Origin: a virus
Strand: one strand, 5' to 3'
IMG/VR virus record: IMGVR_UViG_3300006046_000002
Location: 1-64,000 of that record
DNA length: 64,000 nt
The notes under the pieces are model-generated. The model saw nothing but the letters and a program-made list of their open reading frames with translations. It was not told the DNA's origin and did no database searches. Below, piece by piece: positions 10,238-51,142 of the stretch. The translations under genes were made by a program, and so were the position numbers. Within the stretch, counting starts at the first letter, position 1. Each line of letters starts with the position of its first letter.

Positions 10238-10258
10238 ACTTTCTCTCTGCGGTGAACA

Positions 10259-15603: not shown

Positions 15604-17834
15604 CGCGACCGAACGGAGGATGGCAATATCCTCGGGAAGATTATCCAGGCACGGCAGGAAGTATTCCTCCGGGCGGCACGGCCGATCAGGTGCTGGCAAA
15701 GATCGATGGCGCTGATTTCAATACGTATTGGCGAACGATTGTCGGCGGCGGGGGAGGCGGAGGCGAGACGTTCTCATACTGGGATCCTGATAAACCGCCG
15801 ATCATTCCGAACGCGGCAGATGATGAAGCGGAAGGACTTGCGGGCGCGACTCCTCCGGGATGGACAGCATTCAATCTCGCAGCGAGTTCAACGTTTCTGT
15901 ACGATGGCAAAGGTCGCATCGATCTCTTTGTGCCTGGCGGATCAGGTGATGTTCTGCGATTCTTCTACAAAGGTGGAATCACAGGATCGTACACCGCGAC
16001 TGTGAAGATGGCCTCGCTGATGGCCGGTGCGTTCAACTCCACTGGCCTCTGCATACGCGATCCATCGAGTGGGAAGATGCTGTCACTCGGCCTGCAACAC
16101 CGCGGCGGCTCCGTCGTGTGGATCTTCACGTGGTGGAATAGCAGTACGTCATGGGCGGGAGAAACGCTTGGTCCTGCCGTGGACATGAATGACGACATGT
16201 ACTTTCAGTTGTCATGGGATGGCACGACAGTCACGGCACGTTATGCGCGAAATGGAACTGACTTTCAAGTCTGGACGACGAGTACATGGTTCACAGGCGG
16301 AACGCCAACGCAAGTTGGTCTTCAGGCGAATTCACAGTCTGGCGGTAATGCTCACGGCTACTTCTATTTCTTCCGTCTGAAAGCAGCAACGACGGATCAG
16401 ATCGGCGGTATGCGTCTTGTCGGTGGAACGAGTACGGGATCGTTGGCTGTGTACGATGAAGGTGTCTCTGTTGGAACGGGAGTCACGGGACTGAACTTCA
16501 TCGGCGGCGCAGTCGTGGCCGGAGCGCCCGTCTCTGGCGTTATTCCGATCACGATCTCCGGCGGATCAATCGATGTGAAGGACGAAGGGACGACGGTTGC
16601 GACTGGCGTGTCGGCGCTCAATTTCATTGGCGCGAATGTCACAGTCGGTGCTGCGGTCGCTGGCGTTGTTCCGATCACAGTGAGTGGAAGTTCTGGTGGA
16701 GGAGGTGGAGGCGGTGCACTGCCGTCGATTGACCTGATCAACTTCTGGACGTCCAGTGGCGTCAAGGCGACGGCGTCGTCGAGTTATTCGCAGCTTGGTC
16801 CAGAAGGCGCGTGGCTCCCCGGCGAGGGAAACGGCTGGATCACGAACGCGACGTCAACTGGCTGGGTCAAGATCGAATTTCCCAGCGCGGTCACGATGAA
16901 ATCATATGCGATCAATCCGTGGTACGCTGATACGTTTCCGACGCGCTCGCCGAAGACCTGGACGTTAGAAGGGTCGAATGATGATGTGACGTACACCGTG
17001 CTGGACACGCAGACGAACTTCACCGCATGGACGCGATATCAACGCGTGGCGTTCACCACATCGAACACGACGGCGTACAAGTTCTATAAGCTGAACGTCA
17101 CGTTGAACGGTGGCGACAGTTACATGGGCGTCGGTGGTATCTATCTCTATGGCGATCCTGGCGGAACTGGGAGCGCGCTTCCGGCGTGGGTGACGAATCA
17201 TCCGGACAATCCGCCGACGTCCGCGAACGCGATGGATGACGAGTTCACTGGCGCATCGCTCGATTCCAAGTGGACATTGCGCGACCTCAGTACCATCAAT
17301 GCCTCCGTTACGAAGAGTTACAACAACGGGGGCTGGCTATCGTACTCGTGCCCATCGTCTATCCAAACGCGCATCTACGCGCTCACTCAGCCAGCACCAG
17401 CCGGGAACTGGCGCGTGCAGTCGAAGATGGCGTTCGACTCTGCAACGTGGAATTACTTCGGGCTCTATTTGATCGCCCGACGCGGGTCGGTGAGCAAGTC
17501 ATCGATGGCCGGACCGCTGTACCACTCCAGCTATGGCGCAATCACGACCTATGCGACGCGCGTCAATGAGCCGAGCACGCTCGCGATCGATCAGGACCTG
17601 TACGACATCCGCTCTGATACGTTCTATCTGGAGCTGGAGTACGACGGCACGAATTTGACTTGGCGCATCTCGAAGACTGGCATGAAATACACGCGGTTCT
17701 GGGGCGAGGCTGCTACCACGTTTCTCGGCGGAGCGCCAGAGGAGGTTGGCATTAATTTCCATTTCTACGGCGGCTCCAGTGATACGAACCACATTATGAC
17801 GGGTTCGGTGGATTGGTTCCGTCGAGTCGCCTGA
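15600..17834 (+). CDS. Tail fibre / receptor-binding protein with F5/8 type C (discoidin)-like domain
   Basis: ATGA coupling. Internal duplicated GV(T/S)(G/A)LNFIG..V.VGA.V(S/A)GV(I/V)PIT(I/V)SG units. The segment GWVKIEFPSAVTMKSYAINPW...KTWTLEGSNDDVTYTVLD...YKFYKLNV looks like a discoidin/CBM32 domain. Poly-Gly linkers are present. Confidence 0.6.
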   Translation: MTRPNGGWQYPREDYPGTAGSIPPGGTADQVLAKIDGADFNTYWRTIVGGGGGGGETFSYWDPDKPPIIPNAADDEAEGLAGATPPGWTAFNLAASSTFLYDGKGRIDLFVPGGSGDVLRFFYKGGITGSYTATVKMASLMAGAFNSTGLCIRDPSSGKMLSLGLQHRGGSVVWIFTWWNSSTSWAGETLGPAVDMNDDMYFQLSWDGTTVTARYARNGTDFQVWTTSTWFTGGTPTQVGLQANSQSGGNAHGYFYFFRLKAATTDQIGGMRLVGGTSTGSLAVYDEGVSVGTGVTGLNFIGGAVVAGAPVSGVIPITISGGSIDVKDEGTTVATGVSALNFIGANVTVGAAVAGVVPITVSGSSGGGGGGGALPSIDLINFWTSSGVKATASSSYSQLGPEGAWLPGEGNGWITNATSTGWVKIEFPSAVTMKSYAINPWYADTFPTRSPKTWTLEGSNDDVTYTVLDTQTNFTAWTRYQRVAFTTSNTTAYKFYKLNVTLNGGDSYMGVGGIYLYGDPGGTGSALPAWVTNHPDNPPTSANAMDDEFTGASLDSKWTLRDLSTINASVTKSYNNGGWLSYSCPSSIQTRIYALTQPAPAGNWRVQSKMAFDSATWNYFGLYLIARRGSVSKSSMAGPLYHSSYGAITTYATRVNEPSTLAIDQDLYDIRSDTFYLELEYDGTNLTWRISKTGMKYTRFWGEAATTFLGGAPEEVGINFHFYGGSSDTNHIMTGSVDWFRRVA

Positions 17835-36230: not shown

Positions 36231-37796
36231 TTAGGACTTCTTGTTGGTCCAGCTGAAGTCGATGTCGAGGTCCTCGTCGCCCACGACCTTCGGCTCCTCC
36301 GGCATCCGGATCGTGTTGATCGGCTGCTCCCGCTTGCGCAGCTCCTCGATCCGCTTGCGCTCGGCCTCGAGCCGCACCTTCTCCTCCGCCTCGCGCCGCT
36401 CTGCCTCGATCTTCCGGAGCCGATCGGCGATGACCTTGACGTCCGTGAGCGGCACCCACGGCGCGTGAATGCGGATCGTGCTGGCGCGGCTCGGCGACAG
36501 ATACAACATGTCGCCCCGACCGAGCAGTCCCTCAGCACCCTTCATGTGGAGGATGACACGCGAGTCCTGCATCGACGTCACCTTGAACGCCATGCGTGCC
36601 GGGAAGTTCACCTTGATCCGGCCTGACAGGACGTCGACCGACGGACGCTGAGTTGCCGCCACCATGTGGATGCCAGTGGCGCGGGCGATCTGGCTGATTT
36701 CCGCGATGAGCCGAGTGAACTCCTTGCGGTCCTGCATCATCAGGTCACCCAACTCGTCGATCACGCAGACAATGCGCGGAAGCTTGGCCTCTGACTTCGA
36801 GCCCTCGACCACTCCGTTGTACTCCTTGATATCCCGGACTCCCTTGTACGACAGGAGGTTCAGGCGGCGCCGCATTTCACGCACCAGCTTTTCCAACATC
36901 TCCTTGGCGCGGTGCGGCGACGTGACCATCGCTTCCTTCATGTGCGGGATGCCGTTGTAGTGCATCAGCTCCACACCCTTCGGGTCAATCATGTAGAACT
37001 CCAACTCCTCCGGCGTGCACACCGTCAGCAGCGAGCTGATGATGCAGTTCAGGCTGACCGACTTGCCCGCGCCAGTGCTGCCAGCGATCAGCAGATGCGG
37101 CATCGTTGCGAGGTCGTCGATGATCGGCTCACCGAACGGATCCGTGCCCAGATTCAGCGGGAGCTCCATACCTTTGGCCTTGGCCGACCGCACCGACTGA
37201 AGCGACGCACGGAACCCAACGTTCTGGCGCTCGCTGCTTTCGTTGGAGATCTCGATACCCATGACGTCCTTGCCAGCGATGCGCCGCACCATCACGGCAT
37301 CAGCGCTGAGCGCCAGTGCCAAGTCCTCCTGCAGATTGATGAGCCGCCGGATGCGCGTGCTCTTGGCGGGCTGAAACTCGTACAACGTGATGACGGGTCC
37401 CTTGCGCACGGCCATCACCTTTCCGGGGCACCCGAAGAACGAGGCGCGCTCCTCGATGGTCTCCTTGGCCTCGCGCTGATCGGGCGTCATTTTCGTCGTG
37501 ACATCCTCTCCGGTCTCGAGATCGCGGGACACGACCGTCAGGCCTTTCGGCGCCACGAACTTCGGCATGCGCTCGGCCTTGCTCGACTTCTTGAGCTGAC
37601 CCTTGACCTTGACCTTGCTCGCCTTGCGGACTTCTGCCTTTGTCTTTTTCACTGGCTTCTTCTCCGTGGACTTGGTGGACTTCGCCTTCCCCGAACCGCC
37701 ACACTTCAGGCACTTCTTCATCGACACGCGGCCAGCCTTCTTGATGAGCGTGACGCCCATGCCAGCGCAGAACGTGCAATCGGTGGTCTTCTTCAT
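36231..37796 (-). CDS. Soluble FtsK/SpoIIIE-family ATPase with N-terminal zinc finger and Lys-rich linker
   Basis: Walker A LLIAGSTGAGKSVSLN, Walker B VCVIDELGDLMM, then ATQRPSVDVL. No N-terminal membrane helices. The N-terminus is CTFCAGMG...CLKCGGSG followed by KAKSTKSTEKKPVKKTK. Confidence 0.85.
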   Translation of the reverse strand: MKKTTDCTFCAGMGVTLIKKAGRVSMKKCLKCGGSGKAKSTKSTEKKPVKKTKAEVRKASKVKVKGQLKKSSKAERMPKFVAPKGLTVVSRDLETGEDVTTKMTPDQREAKETIEERASFFGCPGKVMAVRKGPVITLYEFQPAKSTRIRRLINLQEDLALALSADAVMVRRIAGKDVMGIEISNESSERQNVGFRASLQSVRSAKAKGMELPLNLGTDPFGEPIIDDLATMPHLLIAGSTGAGKSVSLNCIISSLLTVCTPEELEFYMIDPKGVELMHYNGIPHMKEAMVTSPHRAKEMLEKLVREMRRRLNLLSYKGVRDIKEYNGVVEGSKSEAKLPRIVCVIDELGDLMMQDRKEFTRLIAEISQIARATGIHMVAATQRPSVDVLSGRIKVNFPARMAFKVTSMQDSRVILHMKGAEGLLGRGDMLYLSPSRASTIRIHAPWVPLTDVKVIADRLRKIEAERREAEEKVRLEAERKRIEELRKREQPINTIRMPEEPKVVGDEDLDIDFSWTNKKS

Positions 37797-39560: not shown

Positions 39561-39779
39561 CTAGATAGCACGTCTGCGCGATTTTCTGCCGCGCTTTGAT
39601 CGTGCTGTGCGGACACGTTCAGCTGACACAGTCAGTCGACGCTTCTCCGCATCATAGTGCGATTCGCCGTAGTCTCCGGCAAGCATGTTATTCCGCGCGA
39701 CCTGATACGAGAGCTTCAGGTATGACGCGACTTGCACTGGAGTCCAGCGCTCTTCGGTGGGAGGCGTTTCATCCGCCAT
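39561..39779 (-). CDS. Small HTH DNA-binding protein (excisionase/MerR-like fold)
   Basis: Start at MADETPPTEERWTPVQVASYLKLSYQVARNNML. Basic tail RSKRGRKSRRRAI. Last gene of the 39.5-53.8 kb leftward block. Confidence 0.45.
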   Translation of the reverse strand: MADETPPTEERWTPVQVASYLKLSYQVARNNMLAGDYGESHYDAEKRRLTVSAERVRTARSKRGRKSRRRAI

Positions 39780-41034
39780 GTTTTTGCTCCATCTTTTCGA
39801 TGTAGCGATCGCGCGCATCTCGGATCTCACGGGTGAGACGTCCAGTCGCCCGATCGTTGTAGATTCCGCATGGTCTATCCTCCATCAAATCAATGAACCA
39901 TTGACAGACACGGTCTGCATCGTGGTACTTCTCGAGCATCTCCCGACCATTCATGTTGATCCGTCGTGCTTTCTTCGCGGGAAGATTGATCGCGTGATTG
40001 ATCAGTCTGGCCAACTCCTTTGGCGAGACATCAACCGGGAACTCGAGATGGGTCTCTCCGGCTTCGAACATCGTAAGATCATTCTGCTCGGCCATACTTT
40101 CAGCAACCGCGAGCGGAATGCATCCGTTGTTGATGGCCTCCAGGATCGAGTAGTTGAAATGATTGCCGAGTGCCGCGTGCACTTTCGACCACGAGGTGTC
40201 CACCATGACCCGACTGGATTGGTACAATCCGCGCAATAATCGTGGTGAAACGAACCCACGATAGTCCATGCCACTCTTCTCAGCACGACGCCAGATACCC
40301 TGATAGCGTGGCTTGCACTTATCGATGCTCCGCATGTATCGACCTTCAATGCCATCGCCAGCGATTACGTTGCGAACACCATAGGGAAGATTCGGAATAG
40401 CCCGCACGACAAGATCCATGCGCTTCCATGCTTTCCACACATGTGCGCTCACGAATCGTCGTTGACGATCAGCCCACTGCGGTTGACGACGGCGATTCAG
40501 GGGCACGATCGGGCATCCCATGAACGCAATGCGCGATGGGAACATCTTGAGCGCGTTGTATCCTGCTTCCTGCGCGGCCGTGATGCCGACAATCTTATCA
40601 GCCACGGTGACCATATACGGATAGAGATCACGGAAGTGCGCGTCGTGCGTCGCGATGATTTGCGGCGGATCAATGTCGTAGAGCTTCTTCCAGTTTCCAT
40701 CCGCATCCCACTTCGGATTGGGGATCTGGTGAATGACGAGATCAAATTGCCGGGCGTAGCGACGCCACTTCTTCCGCTGCGCGTGATCGCCGTAGCTGAA
40801 GACCTGAACGCCGTACCATCCTTGTGTGACGTGAGCCTTCGCACCGATCGTGCTGTCGTACGCTCCCTGGACCGGAGTCTCTGACTTGATGAAGTACGGA
40901 TCACGCGTCGTATTGCGTAGCACGACGAACTCACATTCATGCCCGAGTCGCCTGAAGGCGCGATGCATGATCTCAACATAGTTGACGATGCCACCATAGT
41001 CCATCAAGTCAAACACCGTCTGCAGAATTCTCAT
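39769..41034 (-). CDS. GT4-family (GT-B) glycosyltransferase
   Basis: ATGA overlap start at MRILQTVFDL. The C-terminal domain has ...GNHFNYSILEAINNGCIPLAV, resembling the E..G..P motif of glycos_transf_1 enzymes. Confidence 0.7.
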   Translation of the reverse strand: MRILQTVFDLMDYGGIVNYVEIMHRAFRRLGHECEFVVLRNTTRDPYFIKSETPVQGAYDSTIGAKAHVTQGWYGVQVFSYGDHAQRKKWRRYARQFDLVIHQIPNPKWDADGNWKKLYDIDPPQIIATHDAHFRDLYPYMVTVADKIVGITAAQEAGYNALKMFPSRIAFMGCPIVPLNRRRQPQWADRQRRFVSAHVWKAWKRMDLVVRAIPNLPYGVRNVIAGDGIEGRYMRSIDKCKPRYQGIWRRAEKSGMDYRGFVSPRLLRGLYQSSRVMVDTSWSKVHAALGNHFNYSILEAINNGCIPLAVAESMAEQNDLTMFEAGETHLEFPVDVSPKELARLINHAINLPAKKARRINMNGREMLEKYHDADRVCQWFIDLMEDRPCGIYNDRATGRLTREIRDARDRYIEKMEQKHGG

Positions 41035-42188
41035 GACTTGACCCATTTCGATGTGCAACGAATCTTGTCGTGGTTGACACGGTGCTCATTCGTTCTGACC
41101 GTTCTGAGAATCTCGTGAATCAATCCGGACTCAAGCGTGATCGGCTTGAGACCGAGTGACAGGAACTGCTTGTTCTCCACGATCAGTTCATTCTCTCCTG
41201 CCTCGTTTCGTGGATTCTCGTACGCCGTGATCTGTGCTCCCGTCAGTGCAGCGACCATCACGGCGAGATCAAGCACACGATGTGTCTCGGTCATCTGATT
41301 GAAGATCTTCACTCGCTCACCGCGCTTCGGAGGATTCTCAATCGCGAGCCGGATGCATTCGACAGAATTCTGGATATGAATGAACGCGCGTGTCTGTCCT
41401 CCGGTGCCGTGCACTGTCAGCGGATGACCAATCGCCCCCTCAACGAGGAATCGATTGAGGACCGTGCCATAGTCGCCATCGTAATCGAACCGATTTACGA
41501 GTGCCGGATGCAGATTCGTCTCCGTCGTGTTCGTTCCCCAGATGATGCCCTGGTGCAGATCAGTGATGCGAAGTCGATCGTTCTTCGCATAGTACGCGAA
41601 CATCTCTGCATCGAGCACCTTCGTCATGTGATACACACTGCCCGGATTCGGCGGATACCTGAATGTCATCGGTGTATCATCGTGCAATCCGCGCATCGTC
41701 GTGTATCCTTCCGGCAATGCTTCACCCGCTGTTCCGTATCCATACACGCCCATCGTCCCTAGATGGACGAGATGAATATCGAGACCCGACTCGACGATGA
41801 CCGCGAGCAGATTATGCGTGGCATTGACATTGTTGCTCACGGTCTGCATCTTGTGCATCCATGACTTCATTGAGTATGGAGCCGCACGAATCTCAGCAAA
41901 ATGAATAATGACGTCAGGTCGCATGTACTTGATCAACGCGAGCAACTCCATCGCCTGACACGCAACATCGAGCTGATAGAAGTACATGAACTTCTTCGTC
42001 AGCGCTTGCCATGTCGCGATGCGTTCTTTGAGAGGCGAAATTGGCGTGAGCGACTGAATGTCGAGTCGTTCATCAATCCGGCGGCGCTCGAAGTTATCGA
42101 CAATCGTGACGTCATGTCCGTGTGCGGAGAGATGCAGTGCCGTTGGCCATCCGCAGAATCCGTCGCCACCGAGAATGAGAATCTTCAT
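41031..42188 (-). CDS. SQD1/Agl3-family SDR, UDP-sulfoquinovose synthase-like
   Basis: From memory of plant SQD1, colinear similarity along the whole length: ILGGDGFCGWPTALHLS, RRRIDERLDIQSLTPISPLKERIATWQ, HFAEIRAAPYSM, LGTMGVYGY (catalytic Thr context), SVYHMTK (Tyr-His...Lys), DYDGDYGTVLNRFLVEGAIGHPLTVHGTGGQTRAFIHI. Confidence 0.8.
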   Translation of the reverse strand: MKILILGGDGFCGWPTALHLSAHGHDVTIVDNFERRRIDERLDIQSLTPISPLKERIATWQALTKKFMYFYQLDVACQAMELLALIKYMRPDVIIHFAEIRAAPYSMKSWMHKMQTVSNNVNATHNLLAVIVESGLDIHLVHLGTMGVYGYGTAGEALPEGYTTMRGLHDDTPMTFRYPPNPGSVYHMTKVLDAEMFAYYAKNDRLRITDLHQGIIWGTNTTETNLHPALVNRFDYDGDYGTVLNRFLVEGAIGHPLTVHGTGGQTRAFIHIQNSVECIRLAIENPPKRGERVKIFNQMTETHRVLDLAVMVAALTGAQITAYENPRNEAGENELIVENKQFLSLGLKPITLESGLIHEILRTVRTNEHRVNHDKIRCTSKWVKS

Positions 42189-42195
42189 TGAGTGA

Positions 42196-42990
42196 TCAAG
42201 TAGATGGGTGAGACTGATACCCGTCATGGCGGCGATGACGGAAGCGGGGAATCCCTTTCTCATTCGCTTCTCCGTGAAATGTTCCGTATCCCGGAAACTC
42301 AGCGAGGAGTTGCTGCATTCCTAATTTCCATCGTTTCTTCCCCTCACGATTGACGGTATTCTTCATCCCGTCGATCTTGTTCATGCCGATGGCATTGACT
42401 CGACCAACTGCACCATCCAATCGCCGATGCGCGCATGACCGATAGATGTCTTCATAGCAGACGATCTGCTTCGGCAACACGAGACCAGATTTGAGGGTAC
42501 GAAACATCTGCGCCGCGCCATGAATCAATCCGTATGATCGACTGTATCCGCCGCCGCGCAACCAATCGAGACGCGAGGTGTTCGAAAATCCAACGAGCGA
42601 AACTTTCTGTTGATGCATGCATGCACGCGCCATCTCCATGACTTTCTCGAGCGATGGCTTTCCGGCGCGTGAGACGAAAAAGTCCGGCCGACAATCATCG
42701 TCAAGGCGGAAGGCATACTTGAATCCTTGCTTTCGCGCATAGTCATAGCAGAACCGGACCTGATGCACGAGACCAGACTTTCCCTTGACGATGTGAATCG
42801 CCGTGTCGCCGAACCGATGGACATTCTTCTTCAGCCATCGCTTGTGCTCGAGATACAGACTGGGATCAGCGATGACGAACACCGGAACTGCGAGGGGGAA
42901 TTGCTTTCGGAACGACATCAGCGTATCGAGCGGTGGAGAACGCTTCGTTGGAATGACGATGCACACATTGTGCAGAGACATGCGCATCAT
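42196..42990 (-). CDS. Putative GT-A-fold glycosyltransferase-like protein
   Basis: N-terminal VCIVIPTKR...VFVIAD and FRLDDDCRP (DxD-like) suggest a nucleotide-diphospho-sugar transferase fold. Weak call. Confidence 0.4.
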   Translation of the reverse strand: MMRMSLHNVCIVIPTKRSPPLDTLMSFRKQFPLAVPVFVIADPSLYLEHKRWLKKNVHRFGDTAIHIVKGKSGLVHQVRFCYDYARKQGFKYAFRLDDDCRPDFFVSRAGKPSLEKVMEMARACMHQQKVSLVGFSNTSRLDWLRGGGYSRSYGLIHGAAQMFRTLKSGLVLPKQIVCYEDIYRSCAHRRLDGAVGRVNAIGMNKIDGMKNTVNREGKKRWKLGMQQLLAEFPGYGTFHGEANEKGIPRFRHRRHDGYQSHPST

Positions 42991-43577
42991 GATTCTTTCT
43001 CAGGCATGCGTCCAGCCTTGATCTCCTCGATCAATTTCTGGAGAAAGTGCTGTGCCTTCTCGAGATCTTGCAGTCCGTTCTTCTTCAAGTAGCGCATCAC
43101 GTATTTTGTGATTTGATACTGTGCCCAATTCCACTTGAACATAACCGCGAGATCCCAATGCTGAATTGCTCCGCCACCATAGTGATCGCCACCGACCTGA
43201 CGCGAGTTGGCTCGTTCTTCGGCTGTCGGTAAATCATTGACAGATCGCAGTGCTCTCTCGACGATGTTCTGACTCGTGATCTCACCATCAGCAAGTTCCT
43301 GCTCGAGCTGACCGACAGTCTGATCGCGATGAACCGCGTTGATGACTTGTGGATCATCGAGCGGATCGCCATCGATCGGATCATCACTACCGATGTGACG
43401 CATGAAATGAAACGTCGCTTCTGGATTTGTCGGATCCATTGGCGTACGATCACGTCGCAGTACGATTCCACCACCAGCGGTGTCGATCGTGTTATCACTC
43501 ATGAAGGGATACTGCTGACGCTTGAGCAATGCTCTGATCTCATTGAATGCGCGCTCAGAAATAGTCAGTTCGGACAT
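42987..43577 (-). CDS. DUF3310-like protein
   Basis: TAATG overlap start at MSELTISE. The C-terminal QVGGDHYGGGAIQHWDLAVMFKWNWAQYQITKYVMRYLKKNGLQDLEKAQHFLQKL matches the DUF3310 pattern. Confidence 0.55.
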   Translation of the reverse strand: MSELTISERAFNEIRALLKRQQYPFMSDNTIDTAGGGIVLRRDRTPMDPTNPEATFHFMRHIGSDDPIDGDPLDDPQVINAVHRDQTVGQLEQELADGEITSQNIVERALRSVNDLPTAEERANSRQVGGDHYGGGAIQHWDLAVMFKWNWAQYQITKYVMRYLKKNGLQDLEKAQHFLQKLIEEIKAGRMPEKES

Positions 43578-44464
43578 TACCGATTCTCCATTTCGTACGG
43601 GGTAAATTTCTGTTTCGGTCGACCCGTGCCGAGCATCGTGCGTCGATACTTGCTGAATTCGCAGAGACAGTTCTGCAGATCCTGATTGTGAATACGTGGA
43701 AGATTCGCTTCTTCGAAGATCGGACACGTGACGATCGAGAGTTCCGTGAGTGCGTCTTTCCACTCGTGTTCTCTCCATGGTGTTCGCGGGTCAAGACCGA
43801 GCAGATACGACATACCACGCCGACTGCCCGGACCTGATGCAGCGAATGTCCACCAATCAGGTGCGCTGTTCATCAATGGCGGAACGTACTTCACATCAGC
43901 AACGACCTGCGCGGCAATGAATGATCCCATGCCCTGATAGAACATCAGCCGATTGAAGAAGTTCTTGAGTCGTTCACCTTCTTTCGGTCGAATCGTGTCT
44001 CGATTATCCCAGAGCGGCTGAATCACCATATCGGCGAGATACTCGGCCTTCTCTTGTGCGATTCCGTTTGTCGAGACGATGTATGCCGCGCCGTATATTT
44101 TCTCGCCGAATGTCTTCAGCTTCTCGATGGTCGAGAGGAACTTTTCGCGATCCCAGACATGCGGTGTCTTGAATTTCTCGAGCGTCGGCGGATGATTGAT
44201 GAGGCGTGCGATTACCATCGCGAACCAGACATTCTTCTCTCTCACTAACGGACCACGCCAGCGTCGAGCAATCCACTGCGTCGTTCGATCAAGTTCACGA
44301 TATACATTGCAGAACCGATAGGTCGCCAGAATTTCATCCGTCGTCCACGGAGCTGATTGGCCCTTACTCCGTCGTTCCCAGATGCGATGGCGTTCGATCA
44401 CGAAGTGCGTGAACAGATCCAACTTCCGGAACGGATACGATTTGATATCCGACATGATTCTCAC
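43577..44464 (-). CDS. Possible alpha-glutamyl/putrescinyl-thymine pyrophosphorylase-like (aGPT-Pplase) protein
   Basis: The N-terminal ERHRIWERRSKGQSAPWTTDEILATYRFCNVYRELDRTTQW resembles, from memory only, the conserved N-terminal block of aGPT-Pplase families. Needs an HMM check. Confidence 0.4.
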   Translation of the reverse strand: MRIMSDIKSYPFRKLDLFTHFVIERHRIWERRSKGQSAPWTTDEILATYRFCNVYRELDRTTQWIARRWRGPLVREKNVWFAMVIARLINHPPTLEKFKTPHVWDREKFLSTIEKLKTFGEKIYGAAYIVSTNGIAQEKAEYLADMVIQPLWDNRDTIRPKEGERLKNFFNRLMFYQGMGSFIAAQVVADVKYVPPLMNSAPDWWTFAASGPGSRRGMSYLLGLDPRTPWREHEWKDALTELSIVTCPIFEEANLPRIHNQDLQNCLCEFSKYRRTMLGTGRPKQKFTPYEMENR

Positions 44465-44994
44465 TTGAGGGTGTACGACACGCGAATCAGTTCACCATCT
44501 TCATGCAACGTCAACTTCATCGAGTTCGGCCAGATGATCAGGATCGGCGTAAATCGCTTGATCGATTCGCGGATCGTTTGCCATGTGCCTGATCGCAGTT
44601 CTTCAATTTCCTTGTGCGGCGTGGCGAGCATGAACCCCGATACTTCGATGATCTGGATGTTCCGCATCAACGGAGGCAGTACATCAGCTACCGTCGTGCG
44701 TGGTTCGGCGCGGAAAAATTCTGCGCGCTTGTGATCACACGGCCACACTTGCGCTTTGGACTTGACGTTCTTGCAGGTCCATGACCAGATGCGATGCGCC
44801 TGAGTATCCGCTCCCCATGCGCCACCGTGTCGAAAGATTGACGGCTTGCCGCGTGCGAGAATCCGCTGGATCATCTGACTTTGAAACTCTGTCATCCCAG
44901 CTCGGGTTCCTGTGAATCCCCACTCACCGAAATCGTGCTCATCGATCAGTGCGGCCAGTGGAATCGGAGCGGATTTCACCGCGGCATGTTTCAT
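44461..44994 (-). CDS. SLOG/DUF2493-like protein
   Basis: Start at MKHAAVK via ATGA overlap. FRHGGAWGADTQAH resembles the GGAxGxD motif of SLOG-superfamily nucleotide-binding proteins. Weak call. Confidence 0.35.
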   Translation of the reverse strand: MKHAAVKSAPIPLAALIDEHDFGEWGFTGTRAGMTEFQSQMIQRILARGKPSIFRHGGAWGADTQAHRIWSWTCKNVKSKAQVWPCDHKRAEFFRAEPRTTVADVLPPLMRNIQIIEVSGFMLATPHKEIEELRSGTWQTIRESIKRFTPILIIWPNSMKLTLHEDGELIRVSYTLK

Positions 44995-45131
44995 CGCTCG
45001 ATCTTCTTCATTTCGCCCTGCAGACACTGTCGACACATCGCGTCCTTTTCGATCTTCGCGAGCATCACGTGTCCAGCTTCGTACGTACGAGTCTGTCCGC
45101 AATGTGTGCAGAAATATTGCGTGATCTCCAT
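44991..45131 (-). CDS. Zinc-ribbon mini-protein (46 aa, below ORF-track cutoff)
   Basis: Hand translation gives MEITQYFCTHCGQTRTYEAGHVMLAKIEKDAMCRQCLQGEMKKIER (CxxC...CxxC). ATGA coupling to the next gene. Confidence 0.4.
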   Translation of the reverse strand: MEITQYFCTHCGQTRTYEAGHVMLAKIEKDAMCRQCLQGEMKKIER

Positions 45132-45138
45132 GATCGAC

Positions 45139-45732
45139 CTACAGAAAAAGGTTGTCCTGCTCAGGAAAGAGTTCTTGGAACCGGATACCGAACATGGTCT
45201 TGCTCGCGTTCGGAGTCATCGCGCCAAACAGTGCACGCGGAATGCGATTCTTCTGATGCGGCAACAATGATTGAATCTGTACTTCATCCTTTCCTCGTCC
45301 GGCGAAAATTCCGCTGTGCTGTCGCATGACCGTTTCCGCTTCGAACCGAATCGCCTGATCATCATACTCGCACAGTTGTGGCGGCTCAGGCCATGCGAGC
45401 TGATACTTGTTCGCGATCACACGCATGATTCGTGCTTCGATCGGTCGCACTTCAGGAATGAGATTCTTCAGCGGACGCGTGATATCACCGATGTACGCTT
45501 CCGCTGCATCGTGCATCAGCGCCCATTGCTGCAGATATTCCGGAACGATGAACGAGACGAACACGGAATGTTGTGCGACCGAGTAGAACTGATTCGTTGC
45601 GCCCGCCCATCGGCAGACTTGCGACAGATGATGTGCGATGTCAACGATATTGATAGCGTCCTCTTGAGGATTCATCAGATCGATCACACGACCCGTAAAT
45701 GTCGTGATGTTCGCGCGAGTGATCGTATTCAT
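45139..45732 (-). CDS. HD-domain phosphohydrolase (YfbR-like 5'-deoxynucleotidase type)
   Basis: IAHHLSQVCRW...AQHSVFV...LMHDAAEAYIGD gives the H...HD...D metal-binding pattern. Confidence 0.7.
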   Translation of the reverse strand: MNTITRANITTFTGRVIDLMNPQEDAINIVDIAHHLSQVCRWAGATNQFYSVAQHSVFVSFIVPEYLQQWALMHDAAEAYIGDITRPLKNLIPEVRPIEARIMRVIANKYQLAWPEPPQLCEYDDQAIRFEAETVMRQHSGIFAGRGKDEVQIQSLLPHQKNRIPRALFGAMTPNASKTMFGIRFQELFPEQDNLFL

Positions 45733-45956
45733 TGGCCCTCGATCTTGCCGTCGGCATAGATGGTGACGGAGTTCATCTGATGATCTCGGTGTGTTCGATT
45801 ATGATGATCCATGAACAGTGTCAGTGTGACTGCTGCATCGGTAAATTCTTTTCCACTGGGACCGCGTAAGTGCAAACGGCATTCGCGGAACAAGAGACGA
45901 ATCACTGTGAACCCTGCGTAGATGGCGGCGATCGTCAGCCACTCCCAGATCGTCAT
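45729..45956 (-). CDS. Small membrane protein (75 aa)
   Basis: N-terminal hydrophobic helix WEWLTIAAIYAGFTVIRLLF. ATGA coupling at both ends. Confidence 0.4.
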   Translation of the reverse strand: MTIWEWLTIAAIYAGFTVIRLLFRECRLHLRGPSGKEFTDAAVTLTLFMDHHNRTHRDHQMNSVTIYADGKIEGQ

Positions 45957-47035
45957 ACGGCGAACGCAATCGGCTTTCTCTGCCGACGCTTCTCTCGTTC
46001 ATCGATCCAGTCCAGTCCTGCCTGACGCCACTCGTTGAGACAATTCGTCACGGTGTTGCACTCGTGCAGGATAGCGGCTGCTTCAGCGTGTTCCTTCTGT
46101 CGAATACGATCCCACGCAAACCACATCGGGAAGACGACATTCCGAATGAAGTCATTGTGATACCATTTCGGATCGAGATGCCAGATGTGTCCGACATTCT
46201 TCAGGCCATCGGTGATAGACCGAAGTTCTGCATCGAACGTTGCCGGATTCGTGATCAGCGGTTCGCTGACGATCAGGCCACTGTCATAGGGATTGTCTGC
46301 GTCATCAACGAACCAGAGATCTGGCGGAACGAATGTGTTTACATCGTACGGTTTTTCGAGATACGCGTGAAAGTCGCACGACACTTGCGTGAGTTTTCCT
46401 TGCCGACAATTGCCGATCATCGTGCAGATGTACTCATGCAAGATTGACATCTGTACGGCGTTCGCCCCATAGCATCCCCAGACGACATCGTTCGATCGGT
46501 TGAAGACGATCATCTCCAGTCGTCCGTCGACGATGGCCAACTTGATGAGATCGTTGCAGGGAATGTCCTTGCTGTCCACTGCAAGATCACGTGCCGGATC
46601 CCACATCGCGATCACGACGCGCCGACTCGTCGGATCTTTCTTCAGTATGTCAATCGCTCGGGCGATCTGGTCGATCTCCCTGATGTACGTCGGTGTGTAG
46701 GTCGGCCAGTGTCGCCACCGATGACCATACGCCCCGTGGAATGTGACTCCGTCATCACTGAAATCACGGAAGCGCTGAATGAACAAATCCAACGTCGCGA
46801 GATCATTGCCACCGTTCAACATCCAGAGCGCTTCGAAGAGATGGAAGAATGGATTGGCGAACCGCGTGCGATCATACAGCACACGTTGCCACGGCAGACT
46901 GTAGACAGTCGTGACTGGCTCCGGAACACGGAGCACGGGACCATTGCGTGATTCTGTCCGACGTCCTTCGGTCAGAACGAGTCGCATCCCTGCGCGAAAT
47001 GCATCGTTCACGTTTGTTGCGCGGATAACGTGCAT
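45953..47035 (-). CDS. Thymidylate-synthase-family (ThyA-like) pyrimidine C5 transferase, 360 aa
   Basis: Colinear ThyA motifs: EALWMLNGGND, YGHRWRHW, DQIARAIDILKKDPTSRRVVIAMWDP, IPCND (catalytic Cys context), FNRSNDVVWGCYGANAV (Asn retained, implying a dUMP-type substrate), CDFHAYL. Longer than canonical ThyA. Confidence 0.75.
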   Translation of the reverse strand: MHVIRATNVNDAFRAGMRLVLTEGRRTESRNGPVLRVPEPVTTVYSLPWQRVLYDRTRFANPFFHLFEALWMLNGGNDLATLDLFIQRFRDFSDDGVTFHGAYGHRWRHWPTYTPTYIREIDQIARAIDILKKDPTSRRVVIAMWDPARDLAVDSKDIPCNDLIKLAIVDGRLEMIVFNRSNDVVWGCYGANAVQMSILHEYICTMIGNCRQGKLTQVSCDFHAYLEKPYDVNTFVPPDLWFVDDADNPYDSGLIVSEPLITNPATFDAELRSITDGLKNVGHIWHLDPKWYHNDFIRNVVFPMWFAWDRIRQKEHAEAAAILHECNTVTNCLNEWRQAGLDWIDEREKRRQRKPIAFAV

Positions 47036-47667: not shown

Positions 47668-49797
47668 TTAGTGCACCGACGGACCTGAGCCTCTCGTATT
47701 CTTCTGTCGATCTTCTGGCGATGTCGGCCGATAGCCAGTCTGTGCAGCCGTTGGCGGACGACGGAGTTGCGGACGCGTGTCAGTGACCACGACATTCGCT
47801 GTCATCGAATAGATCTTCGCGGCATCAGCACCGAGGGGCTTGCCATCCGCGCACTTCATCGCTCCGGTGTAGAATCCGCGTGCATCGAATCCAGCGGCGA
47901 CATATCCCCCGGCAGGATACGCGAGATTGTCGGTCCATGTCGATGTGTTCGCGTCAACCCAGAGTCTCCAATCCGATCCACCACTGCCGCCATGAATTCC
48001 ATACTGTCCATTGTCGTACGCATTGCAGACGAAATTCATCGACGTGACCATCGGTGGCTGTCCATCAAACGAGATCGCAGTTGCGACGCCAGCTGCATTC
48101 ACGGTCGTGTTGTGCACGACTGAGATCTTCGAAAGTCCGCCGAGGAATTGCCATTCACGTGCTTCGCCAGTAAACTGACCGACATTGAGACCCGTCACGA
48201 TGTTGTCATGTGCCGATGCACGGGCCATCGGAATGATGACACCCTGACATGATGCGCAGAGATTGATTCCAGCGCCCGTGTTCCGCGCGAGATTATACCG
48301 GAAGACGATGTCCTGACTCGTACTCCATGGTGCGGTCCCATCCTGATTCACGCTCTTGCAGAGAAAGAAGTACCCGACTTGTCCGTCGCCCCAATTGTTC
48401 TCGAAGACATTACCTTCTGCCGCGAGTCGCTTGACATTCTTGCACTCGAGCAGATTCTTCACCGTCCAGACGCCCTTCCAATTCGCGGGGCGTGTGATAT
48501 GATTCCCGATGATCCACACATCGGACGGCGTGAGATTCGGAATCGTTGGATCGCCACCGCCGAACATGATGACTTCATGCGATGCTTCCATATAGTTGTT
48601 CTTGATCAGATACGGACCGGGTCCGTTGAGACCGAGGAAGCATTGTGAATCACTGTTGTTATCGTGCCCCTCGAGACATGATCCGTCAACGATCGCGGTG
48701 TTCGATGAGTTGATGTAGTAGTTTCGCCTGAGTCGCAACGTCGGTGTGCCCGAGTTGAGCACGTGAGAAAAGACGAAGTCGCCAGGTACTTCGGCGAGTG
48801 TCGTCTGATTGATGCCGAGTTTCACCACCGCGTTGAGATCGGATGTTCCCGCACCGAGAATCGCGATGTCTTCGAAATAGTACCCGTGCACATTGCGATC
48901 AGCACTGACGGCGGGTGAATTCGCAGCATCACGACTCACGATCTTCGCACACTGTCGTTGCGCACATGATGTCACCGTCTGTCGCACACCGCGAGCGAGT
49001 AGCGGTAACCCATTTCCGGTACGAATGATCGTGTGATACTTTTCGTTGCATGGCTTCTGCGGCAGAACGACGATTCCGTATTCGAAATTTGGCGCTCCAC
49101 GTAATTCCGTTCGACATCCTGCCGCATTGATCGCGTCTTGCATCGCGGTCTTCACGGCACCGACATTCACGACGTTGTATCCGATCGGCATCGTCACATC
49201 GACCGTCGCACGCGGCAATTCTGCTGGACCATCGAATCCTCCCGCGACTGGCGGAGTCGTCGTATCGACCGGAGGCTTGGTCGTCGTATCCGGTGGTGTC
49301 GTTCCGATCACGGCGAACGATCGAATGCCTTGCGCTGATCCAGACTTCGCCGTGACGGCCGTTGTTCCGGCGCTCTTTCCGGTGAGCATGCCCGTGCCAC
49401 TGATGTCAGCGACCGCGAGTGGTCCCGCGCTCCACGTGACGACTGCACCCTGCATGATCGTTCCGGTCGAATCCTTCACATCAGCATAGAGCTGCATCGT
49501 CTTGCCGACATCGACTGATCCACCATTGCCGTGAATCTCGATCGTCTTCGCGACTGGTGTCGGTGGACTCGGTGGTGTGACTGCCTTGTTCGCGTGCGTT
49601 GAATCGCGAACCCAGATGCGACGCTGTGCATCCTTCGAATACTTCGGTGCGGTCTTGTCGCGCTGCTGAATGACGAGATCTGCACTGTCCGCTTTCCACA
49701 GGGCAGAATCTTCTTGTGCCGTGCTCTGCGCGGAGAGCAGCGGAGGTCCGATCAGCGAAATGACCAGAATGGTGTTGAGCCAGCGATGAACGTTCAT
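47668..49797 (-). CDS. Secreted Big_2 + right-handed beta-helix protein (polysaccharide lyase/depolymerase-like)
   Basis: Start at MNVHRWLNTILVISLIGPPLLSAQS (signal-peptide-like) with GAGG upstream. Ig-like segment VGKTMQLYADVKD...GMLTGKSAGTTAVTAKS. Multiple PbH1-like turns (GNHITR, EGNVFENNWGDG, RYNLARNTGAGINL, HDNIVTG, VVHNTTV). Confidence 0.65.
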   Translation of the reverse strand: MNVHRWLNTILVISLIGPPLLSAQSTAQEDSALWKADSADLVIQQRDKTAPKYSKDAQRRIWVRDSTHANKAVTPPSPPTPVAKTIEIHGNGGSVDVGKTMQLYADVKDSTGTIMQGAVVTWSAGPLAVADISGTGMLTGKSAGTTAVTAKSGSAQGIRSFAVIGTTPPDTTTKPPVDTTTPPVAGGFDGPAELPRATVDVTMPIGYNVVNVGAVKTAMQDAINAAGCRTELRGAPNFEYGIVVLPQKPCNEKYHTIIRTGNGLPLLARGVRQTVTSCAQRQCAKIVSRDAANSPAVSADRNVHGYYFEDIAILGAGTSDLNAVVKLGINQTTLAEVPGDFVFSHVLNSGTPTLRLRRNYYINSSNTAIVDGSCLEGHDNNSDSQCFLGLNGPGPYLIKNNYMEASHEVIMFGGGDPTIPNLTPSDVWIIGNHITRPANWKGVWTVKNLLECKNVKRLAAEGNVFENNWGDGQVGYFFLCKSVNQDGTAPWSTSQDIVFRYNLARNTGAGINLCASCQGVIIPMARASAHDNIVTGLNVGQFTGEAREWQFLGGLSKISVVHNTTVNAAGVATAISFDGQPPMVTSMNFVCNAYDNGQYGIHGGSGGSDWRLWVDANTSTWTDNLAYPAGGYVAAGFDARGFYTGAMKCADGKPLGADAAKIYSMTANVVVTDTRPQLRRPPTAAQTGYRPTSPEDRQKNTRGSGPSVH

Positions 49798-49842
49798 GTA
49801 TCCCTCGATGTGCATGGCGATGAGTCGTCATCAAGCATTTCT

Positions 49843-50296: not shown

Positions 50297-51142
50297 TTAC
50301 GCCTCCGTCTCGGTGATGACCCAGAAGTCGTCCGCGTTAGTGAGATTGCACGACCATGACATCTTCATGTACACGAATCCGTTGTCGCCGAACGTCGGAT
50401 CCCACCAGTTGGCCATGATCCCATAGTCGGAGTAGAACGATTCCCACGGCGCACGCATCCGCTTGTATCCGACGAAATCCATGCAATGTCCACCCTCGAC
50501 GCGTTCCTTCTTCGGATCCGGTGTCCGCATGAATCCGTTCGACCCGATATCGAAGAACGAGGTGTAGACGGTGAATCCCATGATGACGAAATGATCAGCC
50601 GCAACAGCGAGCTTCACATCGGGCGATGAGACTGGAACGGACTCATACCCGATGGCCTGATGTTTCAGTCCGTCGTTGTACGCCTCTTGCGGTGGCTTGT
50701 CGGTGAAATTGCCGATGGTGTACGGCCAGAGATTCTCGTGTGGTGCACCGAGCTGATTGACCGTCTTCAGTCCATCACGAATGAACAGACCCGAGTCGTA
50801 TCCGATCGATCCTTCCATCTTGCGCCCTTCATAGTAGATGAAGAGACGTGAGGGATCCATGTCAGGACGACCGAGCATCCGTTGCTGCCACTTGAATCCG
50901 AAACCGACGCCATGCGGAACACACGATCCAAGATTGCCTTGTTCCGGGAGTGGGGGAAACAACGCATTCTCGCGATGATCGATATGCGACGGAATGTTGC
51001 GACGGACTTTCCGCAGTGCGCGCTTCGTGTTGAACGGCCGATCGCGCATGTCAGGGAGCTCAGGTTTCCACCCGAGTCGTTGCCGCAATAATGCATTGAC
51101 CTCGCTGTCGTGCATCTGTCCGAGCATTTCAGTGGTCGTCAT
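50297..51142 (-). CDS. Papain-like cysteine peptidase (C1 family)
   Basis: Catalytic contexts QGNLGSCVPHG (Cys), GGHCMDFVGY (His) and NWWDPTFGDNGF (Asn-Trp). No obvious signal peptide. Confidence 0.75.
   Translation of the reverse strand: MTTTEMLGQMHDSEVNALLRQRLGWKPELPDMRDRPFNTKRALRKVRRNIPSHIDHRENALFPPLPEQGNLGSCVPHGVGFGFKWQQRMLGRPDMDPSRLFIYYEGRKMEGSIGYDSGLFIRDGLKTVNQLGAPHENLWPYTIGNFTDKPPQEAYNDGLKHQAIGYESVPVSSPDVKLAVAADHFVIMGFTVYTSFFDIGSNGFMRTPDPKKERVEGGHCMDFVGYKRMRAPWESFYSDYGIMANWWDPTFGDNGFVYMKMSWSCNLTNADDFWVITETEA

Follow-up and report, generated by a model that had tools for sequence, protein, structure and literature searches.

A candidate kinase-independent, glycosyl-type pathway for thymidine hypermodification with a sulfo-sugar in an uncultured soil phage

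The 64,000-nucleotide stretch analysed here (positions 1 to 64,000 of the virus record IMGVR_UViG_3300006046_000002 of IMG/VR; hereafter, the window) carries ten successive minus-strand genes that run from 47035 down to 39769 and form one operon, as judged from junctions read base by base. On the grounds of homology and gene neighbourhood, we propose that this operon encodes a kinase-independent, glycosyl-type hypermodification of thymidine that involves a sulfo-sugar, and we give this reading a probability of about 0.55. Its components deserve different degrees of confidence. That the operon is an island for hypermodification built on 5-hydroxymethyldeoxyuridine (5-hmdU) is very probable, and that the decoration consists of glycosylation of the DNA is likely. 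That sulfoquinovose is a sugar that ends up on the DNA is a tentative proposal, to which we give somewhat less than even odds. An original prediction, made from the letters and a list of open reading frames (ORFs), had proposed in this region a thymidine-hypermodification island with unusual partners, possibly of an undescribed glycosyl type. The core of that proposal is upheld by the sequence tests described below, and the canonical kinase and transferase are absent from the window. The interval that it delimited (42196-47035) is real, yet it is too short: because the operon runs on to 39769, it omits the last two enzyme genes, which code for a UDP-sulfoquinovose synthase (SQD1) and a glycosyltransferase (GT) of the GT4 family.

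The First Gene: a Predicted dUMP Hydroxymethylase

The operon opens with a gene (45953..47035) for a ThyA-like protein of 360 amino acids (aa), which matches the Pfam family Thymidylat_synt (E 4e-22) and PHROG 5131 (E 5e-102). Its nearest matches among deposited phages are those of Bordetella phage FP1 (43% identity), YuA (gp17, 41%) and PaMx11 (38%), followed by SPO1-like and then by ViI-like phages, and the match to YuA gp17 and other M6-like proteins spans 98% of its length, the C-terminal extension included. The phages that are nearest by this protein have bases derived from 5-hmdU, or are inferred to have them (PMC5889632, PMC8989533). In an anchored alignment with E. coli ThyA the identity is 25%, and the residues R21, E58, Y94, R126, R127, C146, R166, S167, D169, N177, H207 and Y209 (E. 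coli numbering) are kept, which include the catalytic Cys and the dUMP-specifying Asn that had been noticed in the original prediction. Four other positions are replaced (W80F, W83F, H147N and Q165N), and the alignment places similar replacements in the SPO1-like, YuA, Sonora, RSL1 and PaMx11 proteins. In thymidylate synthases, the residue equivalent to W80 protects the exocyclic methylene intermediate and aids the transfer of hydride, and its loss fits hydration and not reduction of this intermediate. Homology thus argues strongly for a dUMP hydroxymethylase of the M6/YuA/PaMx11 type; the earlier view that this is a hydroxymethylase-type enzyme and not an ordinary ThyA is borne out by both its nearest phage matches and the shared replacements.

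A simpler account would have the DNA hold plain 5-hmdU or ordinary thymine, with a ThyA-like enzyme that is normal or SPO1-like and with operon partners that are unrelated nucleotide-metabolism or moron genes. It would suit the presence of all catalytic and dUMP-binding residues of thymidylate synthases, and also the outcome in NCBIfam, where thymidylate-synthase models alone are listed, all of them far below their cutoffs. We nevertheless regard this account as very improbable, as the protein groups with hydroxymethylases from hypermodifying phages and has the same substitutions at the folate-contacting Trp positions. Moreover, in the set of genomes examined in PMC5889632, genes of the aGPT-Pplase family occur in the hypermodifying phages but are missing from SPO1, lambda and T4, and the conserved gene neighbourhoods described below speak against a set of unrelated genes.

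An HMUDK_hel Protein Without the Canonical Kinase and Transferase

The aGPT-Pplase family is represented in the operon by a protein of 295 aa (43577..44464; 292 aa if translation starts at the ATG at 44455), which matches PF18723 (HMUDK_hel) with E 2.6e-44 and 152 bits against a cutoff of 25. The 292-aa form is on record, while the exact 295-aa product with a GTG start is not. Homologues of HMUDK_hel number about 2,800. The protein is 31-34% identical to Sonora gp42, YuA gp14, RSL1 ORF231 and PaMx11 gp50 (34% for PaMx11 gp50); a scan of viral contigs with the 295-aa protein as single query returned no relative. Its N-terminal block had been likened in the original prediction to the aGPT-Pplases of hypermodifying phages. 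This comparison is correct, because one homologue bears the source name 'alpha-glutamyl/putrescinyl thymine pyrophosphorylase clade 1' and also carries PF18723; however, the protein belongs to clade 1 and not to clade 2 (PF18724, ADDT), which is the clade of the demonstrated group-transfer enzyme (PMC8989533). The Pfam name of clade 1 reflects fusions such as SP10 gp186, in which an N-terminal kinase is followed by a C-terminal aGPT-Pplase domain (PMC5889632). The gene order in the phages Sonora, YuA and PaMx11 is P-loop 5-hmdU DNA kinase (5-HMUDK), HMUDK_hel homologue, hydroxymethylase, with the homologue immediately behind the kinase.

In the window, neither this kinase nor the ADDT is detectable. 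Searches by tblastn with the Sonora and YuA kinases (PF18748, HMUDK_HMUD1) gave nothing below E 0.07 in the 64,000 bases, a six-frame scan of the window for Walker-A motifs found, as real genes, just the primase-helicase, AAA_24 and FtsK-like ORFs, and no operon protein has a Pfam kinase match. As for the ADDT (PF18724, formerly aGPT-Pplase2), there is no match among the operon proteins, and tblastn with Sonora gp39 found nothing in the window. On the strength of these tblastn searches and of the Walker-A scan, the idea that the window conceals a P-loop 5-HMUDK or an ADDT was rejected and, since neither is detectable, the canonical chemistry of phosphorylation followed by substitution is not encoded there.

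The AlphaFold2 (AF2) model of the HMUDK_hel protein is all-helical and of high confidence (mean pLDDT, the predicted local confidence score, of 92.7). Its best fold match in the Protein Data Bank (PDB) is a clade-2 enzyme, the 5-phosphomethyldeoxyuridine (5-PmdU) glycinyltransferase gp46 of PaMx11, although the match is weak (probability 0.91, TM-score 0.4); further matches are the helix-hairpin-helix glycosylases QNG1, OGG and AlkA. The pair Cys268-Glu269 in the motif QDLQNCLCEF is invariant across 30-32 homologues, and by eye this motif is similar to QEVETxLCKW, the catalytic motif of clade 2, in which Cys247 acts as the nucleophile on C6 (PMC11472151).

Directly downstream of the HMUDK_hel gene and coupled to it through TAATG lies the gene of the DUF3310 protein (42987..43577), a candidate nucleotide (5-hmdUMP) kinase. 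The domain call of the original prediction stands (Pfam DUF3310, E 1.3e-5, 25.6 bits against a cutoff of 24; PHROG 236, 'nucleotide kinase', E 1.6e-16), but the gene codes for 196 aa from 43577 and not for the 263 aa of the maximal ORF. This pair of neighbours is the basis of a rival scheme, in which the activated-leaving-group chemistry of M6, ViI and PhiW-14 would be run with parts that are not orthologous: phosphorylation of 5-hmdU in DNA would fall to the DUF3310 protein, HMUDK_hel would attack C6 with its Cys and then pass on a nucleophile, which might be a sugar or a sulfur compound, and the GTs would extend that group. The two genes also adjoin in three related loci (L007-L009), the DUF3310-bearing gp1.7 of T7 is a kinase that lacks a P-loop, and the invariant Cys-Glu motif and the clade-2 fold match would fit such a scheme as well. 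We nonetheless consider it quite unlikely. The resemblance to T7 gp1.7 is limited to about 35 C-terminal residues (E 0.038), with no full-length homology, and in many loci DUF3310 co-occurs with a P-loop kinase, so that it is no substitute for one; as a stand-in for the missing DNA kinase the DUF3310 protein was therefore rejected. In addition, hhalign, BLAST and phmmer against the PDB gave no significant match between clades 1 and 2, and TAGT-type enzymes, to which we turn next, glycosylate hydroxymethylpyrimidines directly, with no phosphorylation. Because DUF3310 genes are present in kinase loci and GT loci alike, the protein is better seen as a core component of these islands, probably acting at the nucleotide level, than as a kinase replacement.

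A TAGT-Related Glycosyltransferase, a UDP-Sulfoquinovose Synthase and a Phage-Specific GT4

The GT-A-like protein (264 aa, 42196..42990) appears to be a divergent TAGT-type glycosyltransferase. It has an invariant RLDDD motif of the DXD type and an N-terminal VCIVIPTKR sequence, and residues 1-110 of its AF2 model (pLDDT 70-96) match GT-A enzymes of the PDB with a root-mean-square deviation of about 3 A; the N-terminal half of the model also matches a TAGT-domain phage protein in BFVD. At the sequence level there is a weak match to PHROG 842 (beta-glucosyl-HMC alpha-glucosyltransferase, where HMC is hydroxymethylcytosine; E 5e-6). This family is very small: a word-indexed search yielded 9 clusters, and an exhaustive profile search of 1.84 billion representatives yielded 50 matches. 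Proteins assigned to TAGT by Pfam are among the weakest significant of these matches (E 1.5e-6 to 6e-4); the comparison of the family with a TAGT set by hhalign gave E 5.5e-4. Because the profile matches include these Pfam-verified proteins, the family is, as far as sequence comparison can place it, a sister of TAGT and not a member. Phage TAGT GT-A enzymes glycosylate 5-hydroxymethylcytosine (5hmC) in DNA and are structurally related to the glucosyltransferase of base J (bioRxiv 10.1101/2023.12.21.572611). The earlier GT-A-like call thus gains from the DXD motif, from the matches of the N-terminal model and from the link to a family of DNA glycosyltransferases, and the shared operon with a hydroxymethylase supports the idea that the protein would glycosylate a 5-hydroxymethylpyrimidine in DNA. 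Some of the TAGT proteins that the profile reached are fused to TET/2OG oxygenases. Two of these (P0269 and P0270) are single polypeptides with a TAGT glycosyltransferase and a TET/JBP-like or 2OG-Fe(II) oxygenase domain, an arrangement that would place methylpyrimidine oxidation and glycosylation in one protein.

Seven bases downstream of the GT-A-like gene begins the gene of a 385-aa protein of the SQD1/SqdB family (41031..42188), the identity of which as UDP-sulfoquinovose synthase is well supported by sequence comparison. Residues 2-384 align with Arabidopsis SQD1 (PDB 1qrr) at E 5e-91, and the aligned motifs include GGDGFCGW (the NAD-binding glycine motif), GTMG (equivalent of Thr145) and YHMTK (Tyr-His-x-x-Lys). 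In NCBIfam, the UDPsulfquin_syn model (NF041015) scores 320 bits (E 2e-95), which is below its equivalog cutoff of 575, and the runner-up, GalE, scores 44 bits. Identity to the SqdB proteins of many bacteria, cyanobacteria included, amounts to 60-65%; these nearest cellular matches spread over many phyla and give no host signal. The original prediction had remarked on sugar-nucleotide genes beside the island, and these turn out to lie in the same operon and to travel with the island in relatives, the key one being this UDP-sulfoquinovose synthase.

The last enzyme gene of the operon (39769..41034), which overlaps the SQD1 gene by ATGA, encodes a 421-aa GT-B glycosyltransferase of the GT4 family (Pfam Glycos_transf_1, E 2e-7, 31.0 bits against a cutoff of 26.4; Glyco_transf_4 below cutoff). 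The protein belongs to a clade of about 100 homologues, nearly all on contigs of phage size. In cells, sqdB is often located directly before the GT4-type gene sqdX, which is the gene order found here, and the phage GT4 was therefore considered as a captured sqdX/SQD2 orthologue. This candidate was rejected: a tblastn comparison with the genes that flank 80 cellular sqdB loci at up to 6 kb gave no match to the phage GT4 with E below 0.01, even though a canonical GT4 adjoins sqdB in at least 2 of these loci (e.g., L038 and L044). In two cyanobacterial sqdB loci (L047 and L070, from metagenome-assembled genomes), what lies downstream of sqdB is not an adjacent sqdX but a gene for a rhodanese-domain protein (domain checked with Pfam in L047 alone) and one for a Sulf_transp transporter, which may represent a dedicated sulfur supply for sulfoquinovose synthesis.

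Gene Neighbourhoods and an Apparent Glycosyltransferase Branch

Relatives in which HMUDK_hel is 50-68% identical keep the ThyA-like, HMUDK_hel and DUF3310 genes, often also those of the HD hydrolase and the 177-aa protein (see below), and swap the genes downstream. These are a radical-SAM/SPASM protein, a methyltransferase, a P-loop kinase and a 313-aa protein in L007, a HAD hydrolase and a 281-aa protein in L008, DUF4406, a methyltransferase and others in L009, and a HAD protein, an ADDT-like protein, a 38%-identical GT-A-like homologue and a P-loop kinase in L010. In L010 (12817-15066), the GT-A-like homologue is located between the weakly ADDT-like protein and the P-loop kinase, which is Zeta-toxin-like and resembles the 5-HMUDK of YuA. 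A constant core with a swappable cassette is the signature expected of tailoring modules. At least three further relatives (L012/L013, L014 and L015) have the trio of GT-A-like protein, SQD1 and GT4 intact at the cassette position, with identities of 58-72%, 62-78% and 68-86%, respectively. TAGT-type GT and GT4 also each occur alone with 5-hmdU genes in other phages.

To view the family more broadly, the 80 nearest HMUDK_hel loci in IMG/VR (L118-L197) were classified by tblastn, their counts not being phylogenetically independent. ThyA-like genes are present in 62 of these loci, DUF3310 in 47 (loci with a P-loop kinase among them), HD in 45, P-loop kinase in 25, TAGT in 20, ADDT in 12, GT4 in 2, and SQD1 and GT-A-like in 1 each; the uncharacterised 313-aa protein seen in L007 has a homologue in 19. 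Kinase loci (25/80) and loci with any GT (22/80) do not overlap (both, 0/80; neither, 33/80; hypergeometric P 4.8e-5, uncorrected for shared ancestry). Because kinase and GT loci are separate in this sample, HMUDK_hel is not kinase-specific, and thymidine hypermodification appears to have, apart from its kinase branch, one that uses glycosyltransferases. As a Pfam name, 'kinase helical domain' then fits just a part of the contexts of PF18723, and the separation changes how this family should be viewed.

A Recurrent Sulfur Function and Phage RSL1

A scan of IMG/VR with a GT4 alignment identified 14 loci (25-69% identity, on contigs of 12-238 kb). Found through GT4 alone, they have a ThyA-like gene within a few kb in 14 of 14 cases and HMUDK_hel in 13 of 14, and no kinase or ADDT match in any. 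In a further locus from a GenBank metagenome assembly (L017), GT4 lies directly between the HMUDK_hel region and the ThyA-like gene, without SQD1. The distant GT4 loci L021, L022, L026, L027 and L030 (positions ~7000-17000) contain APS (adenosine 5'-phosphosulfate) kinase, UDP-galactopyranose mutase, sulfotransferase, GT4 and TAGT genes, a cassette that adjoins the HMUDK_hel and ThyA-like genes and looks like a second route, based on 3'-phosphoadenosine-5'-phosphosulfate (PAPS), to a sulfur-bearing glycan on thymine.

A comparable block is present in a cultured virus, the Ralstonia jumbo phage RSL1 (L034; AB366653.2, 162402-171498; ORF229-238), with APS kinase (ORF238), three TAGT proteins (ORF237, 234 and 233), sulfotransferase (ORF232), HMUDK_hel (ORF231) and hydroxymethylase (ORF230), together with a nucleotidyltransferase and sugar-nucleotide enzymes, one of them fused to APH. 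No 5-HMUDK-type kinase or ADDT was detected in this block. The DNA of RSL1 is predicted to contain sulfated glycosyl-5-hmdU, of which we found no report in the literature searched. Every sampled locus in which a TAGT-type GT and GT4 occur together has a sulfur-adding function, either APS kinase plus sulfotransferase or SQD1. This recurrence is the strongest argument that SQD1 would serve the DNA pathway.

The main competing interpretation separates the 5-hmdU genes from the sugar genes. SQD1, GT4 and perhaps the GT-A-like protein would be an auxiliary metabolic or surface cassette with products such as the sulfolipid SQDG (sulfoquinovosyl diacylglycerol), a sulfoquinovose glycan of the host envelope or a virion glycoprotein, and the DNA would contain 5-hmdU or a derivative without sugar. 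In favour of it are the cellular-like order of sqdB and a GT4 gene, the 60-65% identity of SQD1 to cellular SqdB, and the fact that phage glycosyltransferases often have targets other than DNA (about 65% of GT-containing viral contigs lack a nearby base-modification gene; bioRxiv 10.1101/2023.12.21.572611). Against this stand the lack of detectable similarity between the phage GT4 and the genes around cellular sqdB, the GT4 homologues that adjoin HMUDK_hel and ThyA in distant phages devoid of SQD1, the placement of the GT-A-like protein nearest TAGT with a homologue in L010 between ADDT-like and kinase genes, and the translational coupling of all genes of the operon. We thus judge a separate function of the sugar genes fairly unlikely.

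Several observations weigh against the pathway that we propose for this operon. It is gene context that assigns the acceptors of both transferases, SQD1 could feed sulfoquinovose to an acceptor other than DNA, and the phage is known from metagenomic sequence alone, with no isolate. Deposited phages have no homologue of SQD1, of the GT-A-like protein or of GT4. The C-terminal half of the GT-A-like protein is modelled poorly (pLDDT below 50) and its match to Pfam TAGT (PF20691; E 0.06, 13.7 bits) is below the cutoff of 27.5. For HMUDK_hel, the likeness to the catalytic clade 2 is weak at the level of the fold (TM-score 0.4) and not significant in sequence, and in the M6 system in vitro the kinase gp54 and the transferase gp51 suffice, the clade-1 protein gp55 being dispensable (PMC8989533). 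The kinship among loci makes the counts given above non-independent. Finally, most known hypermodifications of T are cationic, those of the SP-15 type being anionic (PMC12686479), which makes added negative charge unusual.

The Proposed Pathway

The preferred reading, a kinase-independent glycosylation of 5-hmdU, can be put as a succession of five steps (homology argues strongly for the first). In the first step, the enzyme of the thymidylate-synthase family would turn dUMP into 5-hydroxymethyl-dUMP. In the second, the HD phosphohydrolase would probably clear away competing dTMP and the DUF3310 protein would probably phosphorylate 5-hmdUMP, both roles being moderately to weakly supported, so that the family-A polymerase of the phage would write 5-hmdU instead of T. 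In the third, the HMUDK_hel protein, which is universal in 5-hmdU hypermodifying phages with or without a kinase, would engage 5-hmdU in DNA after replication and may flip or activate the base. In the fourth, the TAGT-type GT-A and the GT4 enzymes would put sugars on the 5-hydroxymethyl group, either sequentially, generating a disaccharide, or in parallel. In the fifth, SQD1 would make UDP-sulfoquinovose from host UDP-glucose and sulfite and so provide one of the two transferases with its donor. The product would be an anionic, sulfoquinovose-containing glycosyl-5-hydroxymethyluracil, with a calculated monoisotopic mass of 484.100 Da for the nucleoside that bears the monosaccharide, and, by analogy with the hypermodifications of other phages, it would be expected to shield the DNA from restriction enzymes and other nucleases.

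Other Genes of the Operon and Genome Context

The HD-domain phosphohydrolase of the second step (197 aa, 45139..45732) is a candidate dNMP (dTMP) phosphatase. That it is an HD hydrolase, as previously called, is confirmed by its match to PHROG 318 ('deoxyribonucleoside 5' monophosphate phosphatase', E 2e-56), the Pfam YfbR-like match being below cutoff (E 7e-5, 23 bits). PaMx11 gp52, an HD protein whose gene adjoins the hydroxymethylase gene of that phage, was considered as its orthologue and dismissed, as they have the HD motif alone in common.

The conserved 177-aa protein (44461..44994) keeps the motifs FTGTRxGM, RHGGAxGAD and RSGTW across 5 homologues. These glycine-rich motifs are reminiscent of SLOG/DprA by eye, but the label 'SLOG-like' given to it in the original prediction could not be confirmed: for the protein and its homologues (5) there is no Pfam match at E up to 1 and no NCBIfam match, the profile matches in the PDB are spurious, and what remains is a weak match to PHROG 289 (E 4e-4). 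Two small genes of the operon had been overlooked. One encodes a 75-aa protein with a hydrophobic N-terminus (45729..45956), which has homologues of 33-44% identity in L008 and L009 and no family match in Pfam, PHROG or NCBIfam. The other encodes a 46-aa zinc-ribbon-like protein with a CxxC...CxxC pattern (44991..45131), which was read from the sequence and is called as a gene in the source contigs.

All ORFs described in the original prediction were found on the minus strand at their positions, and reading the junctions base by base confirmed the coupling through ATGA and TAATG. ATGA overlaps join the ThyA-like gene with that of the 75-aa protein, the latter with the HD gene (it thus has such overlaps on both sides), the 46-aa with the 177-aa gene and DUF3310 with the GT-A-like gene, in addition to SQD1 with GT4, and the junction between the 177-aa and the 295-aa genes is GTGA, or an ATG located six bases downstream. 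None of the ten genes is a chance ORF, because each of them has conserved homologues in related contigs. A scan of the operon for promoters and terminators found fewer sites than in shuffled sequence. The end of the GT4 gene is overlapped by a gene for a very basic protein of 72 aa (39561-39779, minus strand; C-terminus ...RSKRGRKSRRRAI), and a gene of similar size and position lies 3' of GT4 in L013, L014, L015 and L019; this protein may be a DNA-binding member of the module.

The window is nearly the whole genome of a soil phage (64,000 of about 64,200-65,300 bases), and the same sequence recurs in several metagenomes, on contigs whose lengths are 64,189 bp and up to 65,293 bp. The genome codes for a family-A polymerase, a primase-helicase, SNF2 and PD-(D/E)XK proteins, a ligase and an FtsK-like ATPase, and no tRNA genes were found in the window. 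Compared by megablast with 50,697 deposited phages, the region has no match at the nucleotide level. Also on the minus strand, a 715-aa protein with a hydrophobic N-terminus and a Big_2 domain is encoded just upstream of the island (47668-49815), a papain-family protein (Peptidase_C1) at 50297-51142, and an FtsK/SpoIIIE-type ATPase at 36231-37796; an FtsK-like gene is kept downstream of the island in L007, L009, L014 and L015.

Relation to Known Systems

Phages such as M6/YuA, PaMx11, ViI, PhiW-14, SP10 and SH-Ab 15599 combine a dUMP hydroxymethylase with a P-loop 5-HMUDK and an amino-acid/diamine:DNA transferase. The operon shares with the M6/YuA-PaMx11 group a hydroxymethylase of the same subfamily (38-42% identical) and with YuA and PaMx11 a clade-1 HMUDK_hel homologue, an HD hydrolase near the hydroxymethylase and a location in the replication and nucleotide module, and the predicted order of events, 5-hmdU before replication and decoration after it, is that of M6-type systems. 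Unlike these, the operon lacks the PF18748 kinase, the PF18724 ADDT and tailoring enzymes that depend on pyridoxal phosphate (PLP), radical-SAM or FAD, and has instead two glycosyltransferases and a synthase of a sulfo-sugar nucleotide, so that the predicted product is an O-glycoside and not an adduct of an amine or amino acid.

The phage TAGT pathways and base J of kinetoplastids (made by JBP and JGT) have in common with the operon a TAGT-related GT-A enzyme and an O-glycosylated 5-hydroxymethylpyrimidine, which is a prediction in our case. They differ in that the hydroxymethyl group originates from oxidation of 5-methylcytosine (5mC) or T in DNA, whereas here it would come from a hydroxymethylase that acts on the nucleotide; moreover, the operon adds GT4, HMUDK_hel and SQD1, and its GT-A enzyme is below the Pfam TAGT threshold. 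Similar in composition are ORF230-238 of RSL1 and the loci L021, L022, L026, L027 and L030, with a hydroxymethylase, HMUDK_hel, a TAGT-type GT, a sulfur function and no detected 5-HMUDK or ADDT (GT4 is present in these loci and not in the RSL1 cluster). In them, however, sulfur would be added from PAPS as a sulfate ester, in contrast to the sulfonate sugar with a C-S bond expected from SQD1, and, unlike the window, clusters of the RSL1 and IMG/VR type include UDP-galactopyranose mutase in their sugar chemistry.

The operon resembles the SQDG genes (sqdB-sqdX or SQD1-SQD2) in that the catalytic residues of SQD1 are kept and a gene of the GT4 family follows, although the phage GT4 comes from a phage-only clade linked to 5-hmdU genes and has no BLAST similarity to sqdX-type neighbours. 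As in the synthesis of glucosyl-5-hydroxymethylcytosine by T-even phages (gp42 and the alpha- and beta-glucosyltransferases), a hydroxymethylase of the thymidylate-synthase family would be followed by DNA glycosyltransferases that use UDP-sugars; the base is uracil here (Asn177 is kept), the GT families are others, the donor would be a sulfo-sugar, and HMUDK_hel is present. Finally, SP-15, YerA41 and Carin-5 also carry a sugar-bearing, anionic decoration at thymine positions (PMC12686479), and the comparison, made by description, sets their (di)hydroxypentyl linker with phosphate and their distinct polymerase lineage apart from the pathway proposed here.

Metavirome mining has reported many phage contigs on which GT-A or GT-B genes neighbour thymidylate-synthase genes (bioRxiv 10.1101/2023.12.21.572611), and T-dioxygenase clades associated with glycosyltransferases have been described (PMC13229309). 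In the literature searched there is no paper that joins dUMP hydroxymethylase, glycosyltransferase and phage, and none that ties sulfoquinovose to phage DNA.

Concluding Remarks

Whether a phage evades a given restriction, CRISPR or other nuclease defence is decided by the hypermodifications of its DNA, and the enzymes that make them have already proven useful, as exemplified by the T4 beta-glucosyltransferase, the 5-hmdU DNA kinase and phage TET enzymes. If the proposed pathway is true, it would include 5-hydroxymethyluracil DNA glycosyltransferases with an unusual donor, which could serve the tagging of 5-hydroxymethyluracil (5hmU). That this lineage places sulfoquinovose on the thymine positions of its DNA, as part of a widespread, uncultured and kinase-independent 'glyco' branch, is a proposal that we put forward tentatively and at rather less than even odds. 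It would be the first sulfonated modification of a nucleic acid and the first use of UDP-sulfoquinovose, the donor of the sulfolipid head group, outside the synthesis of lipids and protein glycans. In such a glyco branch, glycosyltransferases would be the partners of HMUDK_hel, and sulfur would enter either as a sulfate ester or, through SQD1, as a sulfonate. The related, uncharacterised cluster of the cultured phage RSL1 makes this glyco-sulfo branch experimentally accessible. An anionic, sulfur-containing DNA modification would also link the sulfur cycle and sulfoquinovose metabolism to the genomes of viruses.

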